A stretch of DNA of 20,000 nt from an uncultured virus (IMG/VR IMGVR_UViG_3300042466_001057). Lineage: Duplodnaviria > Heunggongvirae > Uroviricota > Caudoviricetes. The notes beneath the pieces were generated by a model that saw only the letters and a list, made by a program, of their open reading frames with translations, searched no databases and was not told the origin of the DNA. The position numbers were made by a program, and so were the translations under genes. Numbering within the stretch: position 1 is the stretch's first letter; every line of letters begins with the position of its first letter. This document shows positions 2,064-11,769 of the stretch, piece by piece. The stretch covers positions 51,896 to 71,895 of the IMG/VR virus record IMGVR_UViG_3300042466_001057; one strand, 5' to 3'.

Positions 2064-2552
2064 ATGGCTGATTTATTAATGAAAATGCCCTTTCAATATG
2101 AACCTAAAAGAAAAAATAGGTTTATTTTAACTTTCCCTTCTTCGTTGGGGATAAACTCTTGGTATGTTGAAAGCACTTCAAGACCTAAAATAGAAATTGG
2201 ATCTACAGAGATTCCTTTCTTAAATACGTCAACATATGTTGCTGGTAGATTTAAGTGGGGATCTATTGATGTTACGTTTAGAGATCCGATCGGTCCTTCG
2301 GCTTCACAAGCACTTATGGAGTGGGTTCGTTTACATGCAGAATCTGTTACAGGACGTATGGGATATGCTGCCGGTTATAAAAAAGACATCGATTTAGAAA
2401 TGTTAGACCCAACAGGGGTAGCAGTTGAAAAATGGATCTTACAAGGTTGTTTCTTAACCAATGTTGATTTCGATTCATTAGGATATAGTGAAGATGGATT
2501 AATTACGGTTAAAGCTTCAATGCAACCAGATAGATGTATTTTGGTTTACTAA
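2064..2552 (+). CDS. Tail tube protein (T4 gp19-like), 162 aa
   Basis: Size, position after the sheath, and motifs EPKRKNRF, AGRFKWGSIDVTFRD, LMEW, YKKDIDLEMLDPTG, EKWILQGCF. Confidence 0.9.
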   Translation: MADLLMKMPFQYEPKRKNRFILTFPSSLGINSWYVESTSRPKIEIGSTEIPFLNTSTYVAGRFKWGSIDVTFRDPIGPSASQALMEWVRLHAESVTGRMGYAAGYKKDIDLEMLDPTGVAVEKWILQGCFLTNVDFDSLGYSEDGLITVKASMQPDRCILVY

Positions 2553-2647: not shown

Positions 2648-3406
2648 ATGGATCAATCAGCATTATACGGACAACAAGATTTTTCTCTACCACATGACGT
2701 GGTAAGACTACCTTCTAAGGGTATATATTACACACCAAGACGAGAGTCAATTAAAGTGGGGTTTCTAACGGCTAACGATGAAAACATTTTAATGTCACAA
2801 AATAATTCGAAAGAAGGTATTATATATACATTATTAAAACAAAAAATTTACGAACCAAATTTTAATGTGGATCATCTTTTAGATGTCGATGTTTCTGCAA
2901 TTTTAATATTTTTAAGAAATACCGCCTTTGGACCTGAATATAGTTATACTTTAAAGGATCCTGCAACAGATAAAACATTTGATATTACTATTATATTAGA
3001 TGAGTTAAAATATATCGACTCACCTCATACTGCAGACAACGAGGGGTATTTTACAACCAAACTTCCAAAAAGTGATAAATCAATTAAAGTTAAATTATTA
3101 AATTGGGGAGAAATAAAAGAAGTTGATAAAATGGTTGAAAAATATCCAAAAGGTATGATTGCTCCTGTTGTCACAAAAAAATTAGAACAACAAATTGTTG
3201 AAATCGATGGAAACAAAGATAAAGGACAAATTTCAAATTTTATTAAAAACATGCCAATTATGGATTCAAAACATGTTAGAAAGTTTATACAGGAATGCGA
3301 ACCATCAATCGATTTAAAACAAGAAGTAATAGCCCCGTCAGGAGAAAGAGTAACATTTAGTGTTACCTTTGGGGTTGACTTTTTTCGTCCTTTCTTCTCA
3401 GTATAA
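2648..3406 (+). CDS. Baseplate-hub/tail assembly chaperone (T4 gp26-like), 252 aa
   Basis: LPSKG...IKVGFLTANDENIL N-terminus, an internal second LPKSDKSIKVKLL repeat, and C-terminal DFFRPFF. Located between tube and tape measure. Confidence 0.7.
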   Translation: MDQSALYGQQDFSLPHDVVRLPSKGIYYTPRRESIKVGFLTANDENILMSQNNSKEGIIYTLLKQKIYEPNFNVDHLLDVDVSAILIFLRNTAFGPEYSYTLKDPATDKTFDITIILDELKYIDSPHTADNEGYFTTKLPKSDKSIKVKLLNWGEIKEVDKMVEKYPKGMIAPVVTKKLEQQIVEIDGNKDKGQISNFIKNMPIMDSKHVRKFIQECEPSIDLKQEVIAPSGERVTFSVTFGVDFFRPFFSV

Positions 3407-3539
3407 AAAACTACTTTTAGACGAAACCTACTATTTAACCAAACTGGCTAATTTTTCTTATTCAGATATTCTAATCATGCCGACTTTTGAACGTAAGTAT
3501 TTTATGAATAAACTAACGGAGGAATATCAAAAAAAATAA
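3375..3539 (+). CDS. Small gp51-like / chaperone-extension ORF (not in ORF track); may be translated by frameshift from the upstream gene
   Basis: Frame is +1 relative to 2648..3406 and open 3354-3539: ...TFFVLSSQYKKLLLDETYYLTKLANFSYSDILIMPTFERKYFMNKLTEEYQKK*. The S-x-x-D/E-I-x-x-MP-x-x-ER pattern resembles T4-like gp51 and tail chaperone 'T' segments. Only GTG/TTG starts occur upstream of the motif; the start coordinate is uncertain. Confidence 0.7.
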   Translation: MTFFVLSSQYKKLLLDETYYLTKLANFSYSDILIMPTFERKYFMNKLTEEYQKK

Positions 3540-3546
3540 TTTAACC

Positions 3547-3554
3547 TATTTATA
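3547..3554 (+). promoter_or_regulatory. TATTTATA box (AACCTATTTATAA context)
   Basis: 13 nt before ATG 3568; the extended context is identical to 5590-5602. Confidence 0.65.
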
Positions 3555-3567
3555 AGAAAAACTAACT

Positions 3568-5577
3568 ATGCTATTTTTATTTGGAGAAGCACCAAAAGCA
3601 CAATCAGATGATAAGGTTGTTGAGCAAACGACAAAAGGACAAGGAGTTATAAACCAACTCTCCACACTTACAACCGCATTAACTGAATGGGTTTTACCTA
3701 ATAGTGTTGAGAATCTTAATAAGGTATTTAAAAACGTTACTGAACAACTAACAACTCAGGAAGATTCTGCTTTGGCCCTTCAAAAGACAATGGGAGGAGT
3801 ATCTATTAATGCCGAAGGGTTTAGACACATACTTCAAGAATCATATCTAGAAACATTAAATATAGGAGGCACATTTAAAGACTCGGCAGAAATTGTACAG
3901 GGATTAGCTGGAGAGATGGGAAGAATTGTTAGTATATCAACGGAAGTAACAACACAATCAATACAATTTTCCAAGGCAACAAATATGACAAGCTCCGAAA
4001 CCGGTAAAATGGTTGCCGAATTTAGTAAATTTGGTGGCACACAAGAACAGTCGATTGGTAAAATGTCTGAGTTAGGTAAATCCGCAAGAAAAAGTGGGTT
4101 AGATGCTAAAAGTTTTACAACTGAAGTTGCAAAAAATTTAAAACAAGCGAGTTTATTTGGTTTTAAAGGTGGTGTAAAAGACATTGAAGAAATGGTTAAA
4201 AAAACCAAACTTCTTGGTACTAGTATGGAAAAATTACAAATTAAAGGTGCTGCTGAAAAATTACTTGATCCCGAAACTGCGATGCAAACCGCTGCGAGTT
4301 TACAAATGATAGGTGGAAATATAGGTGCGTTAGGTAACCCATTCCAACTATTACACATGGGTCAAAAAGATATGAAAAAACTTACAGATGAAGTTTTAAA
4401 TATGGCTAAGGCAACGTTTACATTTGATAAAGAAACGGGAGCATTCGCACAGACAACTGAAGATATGTACGCGTTAAGAGCACAAGCAGAGGCTTTAGGT
4501 ATTAATTATGAAGAAACTGCAAATGCTGGTAAAGAATTGGCTAAATTGGATTTCATTAAAAGTAGTACAAAATTATCAGAAAAAATAACAGATGAGGATA
4601 CTCAAAATTTAGTTGCAGGATTGGCTCAAATTAGTAAAGAAGGTACTGTTAGTATAGAACTACCAGGACTAAATAAATCTTTCTCTTCGTTGGACGATGC
4701 GTTAGCTGACCCTAAATTCATGTCTTCGTTAGAAGAATATCAAAAAAATGCGGCCTTGAGCGATAAAGACTTGACATTAAAACAAATGTCTATTGCCGAA
4801 AAACAAGCCGCGGACACTAATGTTATTAAAAATGCGGTTTTGGCTAATTTAAGTGCAACTAAAAAAGAATCAGTTTTGATGCAAAGTATTGCAGAAAATT
4901 CTGAAATGATGGGTACGGCAGGAAAATCCCTCGCAACGGGTGTTGCTGGAGAATCTGCAGATGCAATAACAGCAATAAATACCAAGGCTACAGAAGCCGC
5001 AAAAACAACAATTAATTTACTTAAAAACTTTAAACCCGGTGAGTTTGTTGATGGACTTGTTGGTGGTATTGGAAAAGAACCAGATAACGGAGGTCTTCCT
5101 AATGTTGCTGGCGATCAACAAACACCTGTTATTGAAACCAAGCCTCTTCCTAATGTTGCTGGAGATAAGACTCTTCCTACTGTTGCTGGTGGCTCAACCC
5201 CTCAACCTACACCAGTACCAGACGGACTTTTCTCCGCTGGATCCCCCCCAATGATAATGTCAAAAGGAAAAATTTATGAGGGATTAAAAGAAGATTCTGT
5301 ATATGTAGGTACCGATTTTGAAAAAATATTTGAAAGAGGTAAAGCAGCAACTAACGTATTATCGGAAATGATGGCTAAAGGTGGTGCTGGTGGTTCAAAT
5401 ACAGAAGTTTCAGGTAAAGTGGATTTTGGTGAAATTAAGGTAAAGATAGATGCTCCTGGCGTTGATACGTCTATGTTAGATAAGGCATTAAACAGTAGAC
5501 AATTCACCAACCAAATTATGTCAATGGTTGCGAATCAGAAATCTTTCTATACAAATCAAGCAACCCTACAAGGATAA
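3568..5577 (+). CDS. Tape-measure-like protein, 669 aa
   Basis: Ala/Gly/Met/Lys-rich, helical-looking sequence with very few Cys/Trp. Canonical position after tube and chaperone, before baseplate genes. Confidence 0.75.
   Translation: MLFLFGEAPKAQSDDKVVEQTTKGQGVINQLSTLTTALTEWVLPNSVENLNKVFKNVTEQLTTQEDSALALQKTMGGVSINAEGFRHILQESYLETLNIGGTFKDSAEIVQGLAGEMGRIVSISTEVTTQSIQFSKATNMTSSETGKMVAEFSKFGGTQEQSIGKMSELGKSARKSGLDAKSFTTEVAKNLKQASLFGFKGGVKDIEEMVKKTKLLGTSMEKLQIKGAAEKLLDPETAMQTAASLQMIGGNIGALGNPFQLLHMGQKDMKKLTDEVLNMAKATFTFDKETGAFAQTTEDMYALRAQAEALGINYEETANAGKELAKLDFIKSSTKLSEKITDEDTQNLVAGLAQISKEGTVSIELPGLNKSFSSLDDALADPKFMSSLEEYQKNAALSDKDLTLKQMSIAEKQAADTNVIKNAVLANLSATKKESVLMQSIAENSEMMGTAGKSLATGVAGESADAITAINTKATEAAKTTINLLKNFKPGEFVDGLVGGIGKEPDNGGLPNVAGDQQTPVIETKPLPNVAGDKTLPTVAGGSTPQPTPVPDGLFSAGSPPMIMSKGKIYEGLKEDSVYVGTDFEKIFERGKAATNVLSEMMAKGGAGGSNTEVSGKVDFGEIKVKIDAPGVDTSMLDKALNSRQFTNQIMSMVANQKSFYTNQATLQG
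5094..5189 (+). repeat. Three imperfect direct repeats TCTTCCTA(A/C)TGTTGCTGG encoding LP(N/T)VAG
   Basis: Copies begin at 5094, 5145 and 5172. Confidence 0.9.
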
Positions 5578-5613: not shown

Positions 5614-8600
5614 ATGGAAAGCCCATTATCATTTAACTCTAGTGAAAATTTTAGAAAAAAATTACTTGTAAGGAATTTAAAACCTTACAGGGTTGATGGT
5701 AATTTTGGCGATTACTCAAGCCCCGCAACATCAGAATTTAACCTAATTGATTTTTCAGTGATAGATTCACCTACCGTTGATGTGGTAGGAAACAACCAAG
5801 AAAAATATTTGTATAAACAAAACAAATATGGACCACAACAAACAAACTCAACTTACGGAGACACTATTACTATTAACAGAAACTTAAATACAAGTACAAA
5901 TTATGGTGAGTACGATTTTTCTGATAGTGTTGGAAGTAAGTTAGAAACCATTGGTGACTCACAAGAAAATTTATTATACGTAAAAAATCTTTATGGTCCT
6001 ACAGAATATGGTACGTCTTACGGTAACGTCGTTAATGTGAATGTAACCCTTTTAAATAATAGTAATTTAGGTAATTACGGTTACATACAAACAGTTGGAT
6101 CAAAATTAGAATTAATTGGAGACACAAAAGAAACCGAACTAATTGTAAAGAACGTATATAAGCCAAACGATCAAAATAATTTTGGAGGAACGGTATGGTA
6201 CATTAATAACGATAAAACCATATTTACAAACGGATCAGGACAATACTCAATTGTAGATACTGAAAATAGTGTGTTATCTCAAGTTGGTAACGTACAAGAA
6301 GTATCTCTAAGAATAAAAAACAAATACACACCAGACCAACAAGGTGATTTTGGTCCAACCAAATATACAATTAATAATGATTTAATTTTAGGGTCTAACG
6401 AGGGTGAATATAATTTTTTGGATACTGTTGGAAATAGTTTGGAAGTTATAGGTAAAGATGAAAAGATAAGACTTATAGTTAGAAATGAATACAGACCTGA
6501 AGGTGGCCAAAGTCAAACCGAAGTTTCTCCATTCACTCTAATACCTAGACCAATCGCATCTAAAGGTAATTACAATTATGGTGACACATTAAATAGTGAT
6601 CTATTTTTAGAGGGTAAATTAGACAGACCACAACTTATTGGATTAAATCAATATGGACCTGATCAACCAAGAAGAGAACAACCCGTAAATCAAAATAACC
6701 AAACAAACTCAAACGAAGGTGAGTATGGGTTCCCTGATACTGTTGAAAGTCCATTAGAACTAATAGGAGAGGTCAATTTAGAACAACTAACAATTAATAG
6801 TTATAGACCCGAAACAAACAATTTAGGAATTGCTGATCCGAACATAAATTTACCTAAAAAACCAAACAAAGGAATTTATAATTTTAATGATACAATAAAT
6901 AGTGAGTTACAAATCGTGGGTACTTCAAAAGAAGGACAAGCATATGGAAAAAACAAATATGTTACAGGTACAGGAACTTATGAAGTTTTAACTATTGATG
7001 ATTTACAAATTAAAACAATTGGAACAGCATATGCTGATGGATTAAAAACGTTAGGGTATATACCATCAACATACACCCCATACAATATATTATTAGCCGA
7101 TAACCCAACAGGGTCTAACGGTAAACTTTCACAAGATTCGGATTTGGCGAGTTTAGGTGCTAAACAACTACAAAGAGAGTTTAAACATAGAGTCGCCTTA
7201 GAACTTATATCTCAAACATTAGGTAGAGTAAACGCATTAACCTCAAGTGTTAATCCGGATAGTGGAGAAATTTCAGTAAAACCAAACTTAGATCCGTTTA
7301 ATGCTATTGGAATCTTGAGTGGGACTATACCTGTATTGGCTCGGAATTATAAAATTAGTTCACCACAAGGACTTATAGGTGATGCCGTTGGGTTCGCAGC
7401 AAGACTTGCTGGTCTTTATTCACCGGTTTCTTTAATACCGGGTGAGTATTTTGATTATCCAAAAAGACGGTTATTAAATCAACTAATTGAAAATCCAATA
7501 GCTCCGTTGGTTCAGGGAGTTTTAGGGGCGATAAGAAAATTAACAGGAGCCGATAGTAAAACCTCATCCGATTTATTTGTAAATAACACATCTGAAGCAA
7601 CTAAAAGTTTGTTGTATGATCAACTTTTTTATAACGAATATAGACCTGATTACCGACTAAACACTCCATTAAATCCAAATTTATTTTCACCGGCACCAAA
7701 TTATTATGTCGGGACAAGAAAGGGTCAGATAACTGAATTGGTTTCTCCGATTAGTGAACAAGCACAAGATAAAAACGGTGATCCAAGTGGAGGTGCCGTT
7801 TTAAGTTATAGTAATATAGGAAAAGATTTTGAAGGACAAAAAATAACAGAAATATATACCGGATTTAACACTAGACCATACTATGATGGTTTAAATGGTG
7901 TACAAGGAGGATTGACATGGATGTCAAAAAATAATTACATAGAAAAATACCAATTTGTCGGACCAGGAGGAAAAACGGTAAACACGTTAGGTCAAGGGCT
8001 AGGTAAAGATAATACATTCTATCAAAGTAATGTTTTTGGTATTCAGTTTGATTCAACACAATCAACTAAAAACGACTTTACTAAAGGGTCTATTTTAGAT
8101 ATAACACAAAAATTAGTTGACGCTGGAAATAAATCCAGCATGAAATTAGAACATGTTGGTAATGCAATTAATCAATTATCTAAAGTTTTTAACGACGGAT
8201 ATGTAGAATTAACTAAAGGATCTAGGGTTGTTAGATACACAACAAAGACCTCAAGTCCAGCATCACCAGATGGTAAAGATGTTGTTGGTTATGAGTATTG
8301 TCGATTGTTTACCAAAGATAGACCATATATGACTTACGATGAGTTACAAAAAACTGATGGTAATATAAGAAAATACACAAACTCCGTTTTAGATAAAACG
8401 TTTAATTTGAATATCGCACCAATTAGGGGTAACGAGTCAACAAACGTACAAAACGGTAAGGTAAAAAAATATATGTTATCTATTGAAAATTTATCATGGA
8501 GAACATCGAACAAACCGGGATACACCTATGAAGATTTACCTGACTGTGAAAGAGGACCTTTTGGTGGTAGAATCATGTGGTTTCCACCTTATGAGTTAGA

Positions 8601-11600
8601 TTTTGATGAAAGTATACAAGCCGGATGGACAGACCATACGTTTTTAGGTAGACCTGAACCGGTATATACCTACCAAAACACAAGTAGAAGTGGTAATATT
8701 GGTTTTAAAATAATTGTAGATAACCCATCAATAACAAATCTTTTAGTTGAAAAAGAATTACAAGAATTATCTAATAATTCTGAAGTATCTAAAGTATTAG
8801 ATTCGTTTTTTGCTGGATGTTTAAAATATGATATTTACGATTTAGCAAAAAGATATAGACAATTTACACTAAAAGATATTTTTGACACCGTAAGTTATTT
8901 AGATGATGAAGAGGTTGATAAATTAACTGAAGTTTTACCTGCTGAGAATGTTGACGGAGACCCTGTTGTCGTTAATGACTACAGCGTACCAAGTGCCACA
9001 ACCAGTGCAACGACTGCAACAACCGCATCAACTGCAACAACCGCATCAACAGTTACGGAATTTAATTTAGTTGAACCTATAGTGTATTTTAGAAATGACT
9101 ATCCAGATCCTAAAACAACTAATGAGACAACAACAAAAAATATAAAAGACTTGTTTGACGATTATAAAACAAAAAGAGACTCATATAAGAAAAACAGTCT
9201 TAAAAAGATTATAAAGTACAACGATGCAACATATAAAGATTATACAAGTACAATCACTTCGTTACCTAATGCATCAACACAAACATGGTTAACTGAATAT
9301 ATTGACTGTAGAGAGGAATCGATGGATGCGTTTTTTGATTATGCGGAAACCGAATTTAAACAACTTCAAAATTTCTTAACCGAATTATCGAAAGCACTAA
9401 AATCGGGATCTGAAATTAAATTTAAATTGATTGGATCAGCATCTGCAATTACAACGGATACCTATAATGTGTCACTATCAAAAAGAAGAATAGATTCTGT
9501 TTTAAATTATATAAAACAATTTGCTTATGATGGACAAACTTTAGAAACGTACATTAAAAATAAAAAATTAACTATAGAACAAGACGCTAAAGGGGAAGAA
9601 GAAACGATTCAAGACGCTAAATATAAATCTATAAGTTGTACAAAAGAATTTCTTACAATAGGACAAGAGGGTGTGTTTTCAATAAACGCCATGGCTTGTA
9701 GAAGAGTTAGGGTTTCAGATATTGTTATTACTAATCCACAACCACAAAAAACTGAAGAGGACAAATCAAAAAATGAAGTACAAAAAGAAATAGAAAAGGC
9801 GGAATTTGTTTTACCAGCAAAAGAAGAAGATGACGAAAAAAAAGATACGCAAAATTTAAAAATAACAGAAAAAAGAAAAGTACAAAGAAAAAGAGGAGAA
9901 CCAAGAAAAGACCTAACAAAAAAATTATTAAGAAAATTACTTACAGAATGTAATTATTTTGATTTGGTGAAACAATCTAATCCCATGATTTATGATGGGA
10001 TAAAAGAAAAAATAAAATATTTCCAACCAGCATTCCATTCAATTACTCCTGAAGGTCTTAATTCTCGTTTAGTATTTTTACAACAATGTATGAGACCTGG
10101 AGACACTATACCTACAGTTAGTGAAGTGAACGGTGGTAGCACCACTTTAGTTTATGATGATGTAATAAATAGTGTATTTGGTGCCCCTCCTATTTGCGTT
10201 TTAAGGGTTGGTGATTTTTGGCATACAAAAGTTGTTTTTGATTCTTTAAGTATAACATACGACGATTCTTTATTAGACTTAAACCCTGAAGGTATTGGAG
10301 TTCAACCGATGATCGCCACAGTAAAAATGGGATTTAATTTTATTGGTGGACACGGTTTGGCTGAACCTGTTGCAAAACTTCAAAACGCACTTTCATTTAA
10401 TTATTATGCGAATACTGAAATGTATGATGAAAGAGCAGAAGCAACTGAAGATGTAACGTCAAAATACGACGCAGAACTTTTAAAAAGTATTAAAGACGAA
10501 TTAGGTATTATTGATAACTTTAATAGACCAGCAACTAATGATGGTGGTGTAACTATAGGTGCTATTACTAGTAATTATTTTGATCCGGATACGGGAATAA
10601 TTACTGGAGATATAAACTATAAAGACATTATGAAAGACATAACGGTTAAAACTAAGTCTTATGCTAACACAACCGTTAACTCTCTTGAGACTTTATATAG
10701 TAAACAATTACTTGGCGGTATATCGATCTTAACTGACGAAAGAAAATACTCAAAAGGGTATTTTGATTACTTGAGCGGTAACACGAGTAGTGGAGCAACC
10801 ATTTTTGGTAAAAGTGAAAAGATACAACCAAAAGTTGATAATCTATTTGAAAAAATAAAACAAGACATTGAAATTGAAACAATTCCAATTCTTAGAGGAA
10901 TGGCAACACAAGGGTTTACAAAAGATGATATTAGAAAAATTAAAAATAAACTTAAGCAAATGGCTGAAGCACTTAAACAATTATATTTGTCAGATCTTGA
11001 AACGGCCAACGCCACGATAGTTAAAGATGAACTTCCATTAATACGATTAGTAGATCAAATAAATTATGTTGCTGATACAACAGACGGATATATTAATAAA
11101 ATGGGTGGGGTGGTTGTTTATGGTATATCAGGAACATCAAAAGTTAATGTAAGTAGTGTCGGTGTTACGAACACTATTAATGAACTTAAACAAGACTTCT
11201 TTAAGATTTGTTCTGATTTAAACGAATTAGATACAAAACTGAGTGTTAATATAATACCAACAACATCCAAGACAAAATATAATGAAAATTTTAGCAACGA
11301 TATTGGGTTAGAGACAACAGGATTAGTAGGTGTTGAAAACAGATGTTTTATGGTTTTTGGTAAATCAATTTTAGAAGATCCTGTTAAGTTTATAACTACG
11401 GTTACTGAACCAGTTAAAAATACACCAACGGACATTAATTGGCAACCATTTATTTCAAAAAACGTTGGGTGGGTAACGGAGTTAAATTTGGCGACAGGTC
11501 AATTTAAAAATGAACCGGCAACTACCGGATTATACCCTGACTATAAAAAATCAAAAACAAAAACGGACGAGTATTGGAAAACGTTTAAAGATAGTTACTA

Positions 11601-11769
11601 CACTAATAAATTTACAAATTATATTCCATATAATTTAGACAAGACAAGACAAATGACATACTCTAAAATACTAAGTCCGGCGGATGTTCAACAAACTAAT
11701 TTAAAAGACATCTACTCAACTGTTAACTCAACATGGGATAAATTTAACCTTAAAAATACATTAAACTAA
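5614..11769 (+). CDS. Giant baseplate protein (2051 aa): N-terminal ~54-aa repeats, tube-initiator-like fold, OmpA-like domain
   Basis: Uninterrupted ORF. WFPPYELDFDE...W...FLGRPEPVYTYQNTSRSGNIGFKIIVD and PPICVLRVGDF...FDSLSITYD...PMIATVKMGFNFIG resemble P2 gpU / CIS tube-initiator halves. GSAS...YNVSLSKRRIDSV...G...RRV matches the OmpA_C-like signature. Confidence 0.7.
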   Translation: MESPLSFNSSENFRKKLLVRNLKPYRVDGNFGDYSSPATSEFNLIDFSVIDSPTVDVVGNNQEKYLYKQNKYGPQQTNSTYGDTITINRNLNTSTNYGEYDFSDSVGSKLETIGDSQENLLYVKNLYGPTEYGTSYGNVVNVNVTLLNNSNLGNYGYIQTVGSKLELIGDTKETELIVKNVYKPNDQNNFGGTVWYINNDKTIFTNGSGQYSIVDTENSVLSQVGNVQEVSLRIKNKYTPDQQGDFGPTKYTINNDLILGSNEGEYNFLDTVGNSLEVIGKDEKIRLIVRNEYRPEGGQSQTEVSPFTLIPRPIASKGNYNYGDTLNSDLFLEGKLDRPQLIGLNQYGPDQPRREQPVNQNNQTNSNEGEYGFPDTVESPLELIGEVNLEQLTINSYRPETNNLGIADPNINLPKKPNKGIYNFNDTINSELQIVGTSKEGQAYGKNKYVTGTGTYEVLTIDDLQIKTIGTAYADGLKTLGYIPSTYTPYNILLADNPTGSNGKLSQDSDLASLGAKQLQREFKHRVALELISQTLGRVNALTSSVNPDSGEISVKPNLDPFNAIGILSGTIPVLARNYKISSPQGLIGDAVGFAARLAGLYSPVSLIPGEYFDYPKRRLLNQLIENPIAPLVQGVLGAIRKLTGADSKTSSDLFVNNTSEATKSLLYDQLFYNEYRPDYRLNTPLNPNLFSPAPNYYVGTRKGQITELVSPISEQAQDKNGDPSGGAVLSYSNIGKDFEGQKITEIYTGFNTRPYYDGLNGVQGGLTWMSKNNYIEKYQFVGPGGKTVNTLGQGLGKDNTFYQSNVFGIQFDSTQSTKNDFTKGSILDITQKLVDAGNKSSMKLEHVGNAINQLSKVFNDGYVELTKGSRVVRYTTKTSSPASPDGKDVVGYEYCRLFTKDRPYMTYDELQKTDGNIRKYTNSVLDKTFNLNIAPIRGNESTNVQNGKVKKYMLSIENLSWRTSNKPGYTYEDLPDCERGPFGGRIMWFPPYELDFDESIQAGWTDHTFLGRPEPVYTYQNTSRSGNIGFKIIVDNPSITNLLVEKELQELSNNSEVSKVLDSFFAGCLKYDIYDLAKRYRQFTLKDIFDTVSYLDDEEVDKLTEVLPAENVDGDPVVVNDYSVPSATTSATTATTASTATTASTVTEFNLVEPIVYFRNDYPDPKTTNETTTKNIKDLFDDYKTKRDSYKKNSLKKIIKYNDATYKDYTSTITSLPNASTQTWLTEYIDCREESMDAFFDYAETEFKQLQNFLTELSKALKSGSEIKFKLIGSASAITTDTYNVSLSKRRIDSVLNYIKQFAYDGQTLETYIKNKKLTIEQDAKGEEETIQDAKYKSISCTKEFLTIGQEGVFSINAMACRRVRVSDIVITNPQPQKTEEDKSKNEVQKEIEKAEFVLPAKEEDDEKKDTQNLKITEKRKVQRKRGEPRKDLTKKLLRKLLTECNYFDLVKQSNPMIYDGIKEKIKYFQPAFHSITPEGLNSRLVFLQQCMRPGDTIPTVSEVNGGSTTLVYDDVINSVFGAPPICVLRVGDFWHTKVVFDSLSITYDDSLLDLNPEGIGVQPMIATVKMGFNFIGGHGLAEPVAKLQNALSFNYYANTEMYDERAEATEDVTSKYDAELLKSIKDELGIIDNFNRPATNDGGVTIGAITSNYFDPDTGIITGDINYKDIMKDITVKTKSYANTTVNSLETLYSKQLLGGISILTDERKYSKGYFDYLSGNTSSGATIFGKSEKIQPKVDNLFEKIKQDIEIETIPILRGMATQGFTKDDIRKIKNKLKQMAEALKQLYLSDLETANATIVKDELPLIRLVDQINYVADTTDGYINKMGGVVVYGISGTSKVNVSSVGVTNTINELKQDFFKICSDLNELDTKLSVNIIPTTSKTKYNENFSNDIGLETTGLVGVENRCFMVFGKSILEDPVKFITTVTEPVKNTPTDINWQPFISKNVGWVTELNLATGQFKNEPATTGLYPDYKKSKTKTDEYWKTFKDSYYTNKFTNYIPYNLDKTRQMTYSKILSPADVQQTNLKDIYSTVNSTWDKFNLKNTLN
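5770..6969 (+). repeat. Protein-level tandem repeat, 7-8 degenerate units of ~54 aa
   Basis: Recurring N-x-G-x-Y-x-x-x-D-T-x-x-S-x-L-x-x-x-G ... N-x-Y-x-P: NKYGP, NLYGP, NVYKP, NKYTP, NEYRP, NQYGP, NSYRP, NKYVT. Confidence 0.85.
9013..9048 (+). repeat. Perfect 18-bp tandem duplication ACTGCAACAACCGCATCA x2 in a Thr/Ala/Ser linker
   Basis: Copies at 9013-9030 and 9031-9048, within SATTSATTATTASTATTAST. Confidence 0.95.

Follow-up and report, generated by a model that had tools for sequence, protein, structure and literature searches.

Does the gp26-family gene in the tail module of this uncultured phage end at its stop codon, or do some ribosomes leave its frame a few codons earlier and read on into a second, hidden open reading frame (ORF)? 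The stretch of DNA analysed here (the window, 20 kb) is the 3' end of a linear virus record of 71,895 bases, about 24% complete, which is contained in lake-water runs. An initial annotation had proposed a +1 or -2 programmed frameshift at a run of six T residues, fusing the gp26-like gene to a gp51-like ORF. Our results point to a +1 ribosomal shift at UUU_C, taken by a minority of ribosomes, which would yield predicted chaperones of 252 and 296 aa. Judging from sequence conservation, the probability of this reading is estimated at roughly 0.8.

Genomic setting

The window encodes a contractile tail module composed of sheath and tube genes, a PF12322/phrog_150 gene, a 669-aa gene and large baseplate-like genes (Table 1). 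The gp26-family gene reached the Pfam gathering score of PF12322 (28.1 bits for a cut-off of 24.5) and, as expected of a G/GT-type gene, sits between the tail tube gene and the tape-measure-like gene. No family match was found for the latter in Pfam or PHROGs; in three cultured relatives, the gene at its place is annotated as tape measure. No tRNA genes were found in the virus record.

Table 1. Features around the predicted shift site (window coordinates)
Feature	Position	Strand	Remarks
Sheath gene	15-797
Tail tube gene, gp19-like	2064..2552	+	phrog_4542 (E 6e-27), phrog_45 (E 9e-11)
gp26-family gene, predicted short tail assembly chaperone (TAC-N), 252 aa	2648..3406	+	PF12322, phrog_150 (E 3e-11)
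Bulged RNA hairpin 5' of the shift site, candidate stimulator	3332..3375	+	3332-3337 with 3370-3375; 3347-3355 with 3361-3369
First Phe codon, predicted E site	3380..3382	+	TTT favoured, TTC tolerated (TTT 107, TTC 4 of 111)
Predicted +1 shift site UUU_CGN (peptidyl-tRNA-Phe would move from UUU to UUC)	3383..3388	+
Dual-coding overlap: R-P-F-F-S-V-stop in frame 0, V-L-S-S-Q-Y-K in +1	3387..3406	+	CCT 109, TTC 110, TTC 102 of 111
Hidden +1 ORF, 50-aa C-terminal domain (TAC-C) of the predicted 296-aa long form	3387..3539	+
TATTTATA box, promoter-like (putative function)	3547..3554	+	Same box ahead of several structural genes
669-aa gene, tape-measure-like by position	3568..5577	+

Copies of the TATTTATA box, whose reverse complement reads as the T4 late promoter consensus, occurred on the + strand at window positions 844, 2025, 3547, 5594, 15153 and 19435, several of them 13-40 bases before structural genes. 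By eye, gene starts in the record were A-rich with no evident Shine-Dalgarno motif, and between the tube and chaperone genes (2578-2610) a short inverted repeat with a T run behind it appeared terminator-like. Between sheath and tube, a 319-aa gene (1003-1962, +) had no Pfam or PHROGs match; its F-D-W-D-D motif is suggestive of a HAD-type phosphatase. Further downstream, a 2051-aa protein (5614-11769, +) matched the OmpA family weakly over residues 1240-1328 (E 5e-5, below cut-off); this segment may bind peptidoglycan as part of a hub or tail protein. In one related locus (L004), the N-terminus of the tape-measure-like gene, just after the TATTTATA box, was sharply different although the chaperone was 98% identical.

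Two overlapping reading frames

The gp26-family gene ends with GAC TTT TTT CGT CCT TTC TTC TCA GTA TAA, the T6 run lying at 3380-3385 and the stop codon at 3404-3406, as initially annotated. A stop-to-stop frame of 61 codons (3354-3539), in +1 relative to the 252-aa gene, is open across this site and comes within 8 bases of the next box. Its first ATG, at 3477, is that of the MP motif. All this had been correctly described; in-frame GTG (3360) and TTG (3369 and 3375) codons had been missed.

An assembly error in the T run was ruled out, since the junction was the same in the four IMG/VR contigs reaching the site (98-100% protein identity) and free of indels in four of four DNA runs, which may be the source sample. 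Short contigs from RNA runs likewise spanned the shift site without indel, although contigs cannot reveal rare slippage or expression level. A 30-base cassette (3368-3398) was common to many co-occurring phages, and in three of the four lake runs the summed contig depth over it reached 139-248 versus 6-15 on either side.

Relatives were collected by a pattern scan of IMG/VR in which the amino acids F-G-[V/A]-[D/E]-F-F-R-P-F-F were fixed and every synonymous position was left free. Among an estimated 2700 or so matching stretches, 120 were listed and reduced to 111 distinct loci; the scan recovers only relatives that keep this peptide, and as the loci are related, the counts given below are not independent events. 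The +1 ORF was complete (48-63 codons) in 109 loci and ran off the locus end in the other two. Over its codons 9 to 24, a segment lying beyond all frame-0 stops and ahead of the MP motif's Met, none of these 109 loci contained a stop, compared with 104 and 86 loci with stops in the other two frames. A crude pN/pS count over the same codons (44 disjoint pairs) gave 0.24, versus 1.30 and 1.68 in the other frames. The hidden +1 frame is thus coding and under purifying selection, and a chance ORF was ruled out by its conservation, the absence of stops and the low pN/pS. A -1 shift was also rejected: the -1 frame is closed, remaining open for a median of 11 codons only (111 loci), and the base before the T run was A, G or C in 109 of 111.

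No start codon of the +1 ORF was conserved among the 111 loci, three of which lacked any ATG, GTG or TTG up to codon 20. The arrangement is that of G/GT pairs: a second ORF, read in another frame and overlapping the first at its end, is under selection and lacks a conserved start. A candidate for independent initiation, a TTG arising from TTT-GGG, was in frame with an open path in 94 loci (13 had no TTG and in four it was blocked by a stop). A small gene of its own is annotated in several cultured relatives, and some of the more distant relatives with a -1 ORF (see below) carry an ATG just after the stop. These observations would suit a separate small gene, started by coupling or re-initiation from TTG 3369, GTG 3360 or ATG 3477 and giving no fusion. 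We regard this as improbable: 17 of the 111 loci are without a usable TTG, the TTG is a by-product of TTT-GGG located in an arm of the hairpin described below, and a start at ATG 3477 would skip the selected codons 9 to 24. It would also leave unexplained the invariant UUU_CG and the gap-free natural fusions.

Conservation of the predicted shift site

At all 111 loci the second Phe was encoded by TTT and the following Arg by CGN, for same-gene backgrounds of 79% and 14%; elsewhere in these genes, AGR made up 86% of Arg and TTC 21% of Phe codons. The third base of the Arg codon was free (CGG 46, CGT 32, CGC 30, CGA 3). In a scan of the whole IMG/VR collection (about 2700 matching stretches, an estimate), neither TTC at the second Phe nor AGR at the Arg occurred once. 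Two matches for TTC at the second Phe in JGI metagenomes were unrelated sequence rather than homologs, and the two matches of a host search in genome contigs were non-homologs as well. As in G/GT genes, the slippery sequence was therefore kept at synonymous positions. On the 5' side, the site is bounded by five of the 111 loci, which have a +1 stop three codons upstream.

The first Phe codon behaved differently. TTC was found there in 52 stretches of the whole IMG/VR collection, 39 of them distinct and all 39 with an intact +1 ORF, and it arose by at least nine changes on a 122-leaf tree. Because TTC is tolerated at the first Phe and never occurs at the second, the site would be UUU_C rather than U6. 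The homolog comparison thus bore out an invariant TTT-CGN and the lack of a conserved start, while the first Phe proved variable and the U6 run dispensable, if favoured, which fits a P-site slip from UUU to UUC and not a -2 slip or polymerase slippage on U6.

Among the 11,150 plus-strand codons of the record, TTT followed by CGN occurs once, at the site discussed here, where about two are expected from codon counts, a difference that is not significant. In the +1 product, CGN is also what retains Phe-[Gly/Val/Ala/Asp]; invariance of this codon alone is therefore no proof of a slow A-site codon.

A Mu-type -2 slip on U6, the second option of the initial annotation, reaches the same frame as +1 and would give a 297-aa product with one extra Phe. 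The window and 107 of the 111 loci do have the U6 run, but in the 52 stretches with TTC TTT C and an intact ORF, where the homopolymer is interrupted, such a slip would put tRNA-Phe on UCU; moreover, a natural fusion (P0264, below) fits the +1 spacing without gap. This option was abandoned as very unlikely. Equally hard to credit is a +1 slip two codons later at CCU_U (Pro), with the Phe-Phe-Arg codons fixed for some other reason. CCT was present in 109 of 111 loci and one locus had CCC_T, yet L101 displayed CCA with an intact ORF, CCT is accounted for by the Leu of the +1 frame (107 of 109), and the invariant TTT-CG upstream would find no explanation.

Upstream RNA hairpin

A bulged hairpin, overlooked in the initial annotation, lies 5' of the shift site, its stem ending 7 nt before the P-site UUU and 4 nt before the E site. 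Its arms, RCCCC and GGGGY, were conserved through codon choice: GCC or ACC precedes Pro in 109 of 111 loci, and Gly is GGG in 109 (GGG background 11%). Across 106 sequences, 84.5% of cells were paired in the two-helix structure, versus 76.3 +/- 0.5% after shuffling and at most 58.5% when slid, a test inflated by the relatedness of the sequences. The region also folded better than its synonymous recodings (mean z -2.33, versus -0.2 to -0.4 for three upstream control regions). Among all 21 IMG/VR stretches without GGG, 17, belonging to two lineages, had a compensatory A-U pair; in the remaining four the C-G pair was broken and the +1 ORF was still kept.

The bulge TCAGGAGAA (3338-3346) resembles a Shine-Dalgarno sequence, has its complement in TTCTTCTGA, downstream of the shift site, and contains GGA in 109 of 111 loci (background 33%). 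A long-range TCAGGAGAA-TTCTTCTGA pairing across the site was considered and rejected: its central pairs were kept, its flanks were broken and no compensatory change was seen. Neither was an RF2-like Shine-Dalgarno push by GGGG or GGAG retained, given that GAG occurred in just 45 of 111 loci, that GGGG covaries with the upstream CCCC, and that gene starts of the record show no such motif by eye.

On 70S ribosomes, +1 shifting is stimulated by an engineered upstream hairpin, which worked only at a stalled stop codon without RF2 and was said to juxtapose the E site (PMC6321510, in excerpt), whereas the stem found here ends 4 nt short of it. By analogy, it is plausible that the natural, covarying hairpin stimulates the +1 shift here. 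It is, however, not a family-wide feature, being confined to the window's clade: the covariation signal was absent in clades B and C described below (-14.0 vs -13.6 and -17.2 vs -18.1 kcal/mol), and hairpin z values ranged from -1.9 to +1.6 in eight distant +1 records.

The hairpin also bears on a transcriptional origin of the frame change, in which RNA polymerase, pushed by the nascent hairpin, would drop one U on the T run and so produce the same 296-aa protein. The arrangement, a hairpin with a U run behind it, is like that of the Roseiflexus IS630 site, where one base is deleted, and the distance from the stem to the end of U6 is 10 nt, about the length of one RNA:DNA hybrid (PMC5009743, in excerpt). 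The preference for TTT at the first Phe (52 TTC among about 2700 stretches, versus a 21% background) points the same way. Against it, TTC TTT C variants (39 distinct with intact ORF, and also the records HSE3 and GXN1) would need an rC:dA mismatch, called inviable at the Roseiflexus site in the same excerpt, and the likely site of clade C offers just T3-T4 runs. Polymerase slippage is accordingly held to be improbable, and the ribosomal +1 shift at UUU_C is retained below.

Predicted products and natural fusions

A +1 step at the site would give a predicted product of 296 aa, close to the fusion of about 300 aa first proposed, whereas the unshifted product has 252. PF12322 matched once in the 72-kb record (about 24% complete), the hidden ORF lacks an N domain, and no long form encoded by a gene of its own, as for T4 gp26/gp51, was present in that record. 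A profile search returned 2689 representatives at E 0.001, and two of the 150 listed (P0259 and P0264) have the two domains joined within a single frame. The +1 product aligned end to end with P0259 (E 1e-31) and gap-free across the junction with P0264 (E 1e-23), and the TAC-C profile of the hidden ORF matched the C-terminus of a natural fusion (E 9e-13). Together with the invariant UUU_C and the selected +1 frame, these gap-free fusions lend good support to the proposed joining of the two ORFs.

In the three places shown, P0259 comes immediately after a 273-aa PF12322 gene, the two-gene layout of short plus long form attributed to T4. In L157 (986-2734), L158 and L159, which belong to an unrelated lineage, a short PF12322 gene (273 aa) stands in tandem with a long one (304 aa), a T4-like two-gene solution.

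The AlphaFold model of the hidden ORF consisted of three helices (pLDDT 91.7); that of the short form had a pLDDT of 86. The top three of 48,161 structural matches of the short form, all with Z below 8, were 3KLU (Z 6.0, rmsd 3.3, 83 aligned), 2OB9 (Z 5.5, rmsd 3.9, 93 aligned) and 3FGX (Z 5.3, rmsd 4.2, 89 aligned), which are called tail assembly chaperones (PMC9603447, in excerpt). Foldseek searches of PDB and BFVD yielded nothing at E 0.001; the match of the short form with 2OB9 had E 0.9 and a probability of 0.57.

Relationships with T4 proteins were faint. The gp26-family gene and T4 gp26 displayed a weak alignment of 168 columns ending on the same FF (E 0.05). The label "gp51-like" given to the hidden ORF drew little from sequence: hhalign with T4 gp51 was weak (probability 0.5%, E 0.11, residues 223-245), phrog_634 was matched by three of 74 members (best E 0.0025), cyanophage gp51 frames matched at E 0.014-0.016, and all Foldseek rows lay above E 0.1; the label is better backed by the natural in-frame fusions. 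From their position, their fold and the lambda analogy, we infer that the 252-aa and 296-aa forms are a pair of tail assembly chaperones. Position, overlap and a conserved slippery site likewise support the G/GT-type role initially suggested.

Predicted shift direction in the gp26 family

Two further clades, gathered by DNA patterns, also displayed their second ORF in +1. Homology was confirmed for 91 of 92 distinct loci in clade B and for all 33 in clade C. In both, a codon choice resembling dual coding begins at TTT CTT (clade B, TTT 90 and CTT 89 of 91; clade C, TTT 33 and CTT 32 of 33), so that, judging from the sequences, the shift site is likely a UUU_C several codons upstream of the window's position; in clade B, a U7 run at Phe-Phe-Trp is an alternative site. 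After TTT CTT, the +1 frame of clade B loci (L160-L279) re-encodes a peptide resembling that of frame 0, F-F-x-L-T-S-x-F-F-G-L beside F-L-P-L-N-x-x-F-F-W-P, with AAC in 91 of 91.

More distant relatives were represented by 19 annotated-collection records chosen from tblastn lists (from one list of 189, eight were examined). Eight of them, namely SP-15, LIS04, HSE3, GXN1, an immutovirus, Mel-JY01, RM378 and LR756508, had an in-frame UUU_Y and an ORF in +1. The other 11, cyanophages included, displayed a -1 ORF with U_UUU_UUC (nine) or U_UUU_UUU (two); among them are S-RIM8, S-SM1, PBECO4, RaK2, PA5oct and Atu_ph07. The TAC-C profile backed the frame in seven of the eight +1 and eight of the 11 -1 records (E below 0.02); it gave no match in RM378, Atu_ph07, PA5oct and CM1 (E above 0.5, four of 19), whose frame was assigned from the open frame only. 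In related phages, the slip at these two Phe codons appears to go backward.

A more comprehensive reading, which we consider tentative and rather less than an even bet, covers both levels. In the window's clade, a natural covarying 5' hairpin, and not a Shine-Dalgarno sequence or 3' structure, would drive the +1 shift at UUU_C on the bacterial ribosome. Across the family, the shift would have changed direction at these same two Phe codons, being -1 at U_UUU_UUC among cyanophages and proteobacterial jumbo phages and +1 at UUU_Y in the others; in two clades it would have migrated upstream, with the hydrophobic junction motif re-encoded in +1, and in T4 and L157-type phages gene duplication would have taken its place.

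Proposed mechanism and known systems

In the proposed mechanism, Phe-tRNA would sit on the second UUU (3383-3385) while a CGN Arg codon waits in the A site; the tRNA would re-pair on UUC and reading would resume at 3387. The slip rate would probably be set by the weak UUU in the E site and by refolding of the hairpin behind the ribosome. On the model of lambda gpG/gpGT, coating the tape measure protein would be the task of the short form, and the tail tube subunit would be brought in by the long form.

Several T4-like groups reportedly share conserved frameshifting (Vladimirov, Gautam and Davidson 2022). The correspondence of gp26/gp51 with TAC-N/TAC-NC is attributed to Vladimirov et al. 2022 (PMC12846349 and PMC10274946, in excerpt), and polyT slippery sites of T4-like TAC-N genes are called -1 signals in one of these two excerpts citing that study. 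The T4-like sites are thus described as -1, whereas the window's ORF is in +1 with a UUU_C site; the two-gene strategy of T4-like TAC genes is also present in L157-L159.

In lambda, programmed frameshifting on one gene yields a short and a long chaperone, gpG and gpGT (PMC5009743, in excerpt). The window resembles it by its single gene before the tape measure gene, its predicted short and long forms and its TAC-like fold matches. It differs by a +1 shift at UUU_C instead of a -1 shift at a tandem heptamer (no X_XXY_YYZ heptamer with a -1 second ORF was found at the window's site) and by a candidate stimulator located 5' of the site. At 252 aa, its N domain is about twice the size of HK97 gp13.

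Shifts of -1, -2 and +1 are known among tail chaperones, HSTV-2 being named for +1 (PMC5009743, in excerpt). The G-T gene of this haloarchaeal myovirus likewise involves +1 in a myovirus tail chaperone gene, in an archaeal host. Novelty had therefore been overstated initially, as both the link of gp26/gp51 to G/GT and a +1 shift in a tail chaperone were already published, according to the excerpts. A literature search, largely among papers free of subscription, found no report of a +1 UUU_C site or of a 5' hairpin in gp26-family genes; an excerpt of a phage G preprint mentions a frameshift chaperone, with no direction given there.

UUU_Ynn has a particular tendency towards +1 shifting in bacteria, and the predicted shift site has in common with such sites and with UCC_UUU_CGU of influenza PA-X the UUU_CG core and the re-pairing of P-site tRNA-Phe on UUC (PMC5009743, in excerpt). 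The parallel drawn with PA-X held for this core but did not extend to the codon 5' of it: unlike in PA-X, the E-site codon is UUU or UUC and never UCC (111 loci; Table 1), the third base of Arg is free and the ribosome is bacterial. The UUU_CG shared with PA-X is convergent, not homologous. With upstream hairpins that promote +1 shifting by refolding, the window has in common a stable stem just behind the E site (PMC6321510, in excerpt; PMC3639245). The hairpins of PMC6321510 (in excerpt) were engineered and tested at a stop codon, while that of the window is natural and covarying and lies in protein-coding sequence, the codon in the A site being a sense codon.

Conclusions

As judged from its conservation, the recoding signal is real and strongly conserved. 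The annotation is thereby corrected for a large group of uncultured jumbo phages (an estimated 2700 or so IMG/VR stretches) and for several cultured ones, in which the second ORF is otherwise missed or given a false start. The UUU_C site is shared by the cultured phages SP-15 of Bacillus subtilis, HSE3 and immutoviruses, so that +1 shifting at a sense codon in bacteria can be tested directly. Stimulation by a 5' hairpin, which the 70S study showed with engineered hairpins (PMC6321510, in excerpt), could be examined on a natural case with the covarying hairpin. For the family as a whole, the tail chaperone genes appear to conserve the product and not the direction of the slip.
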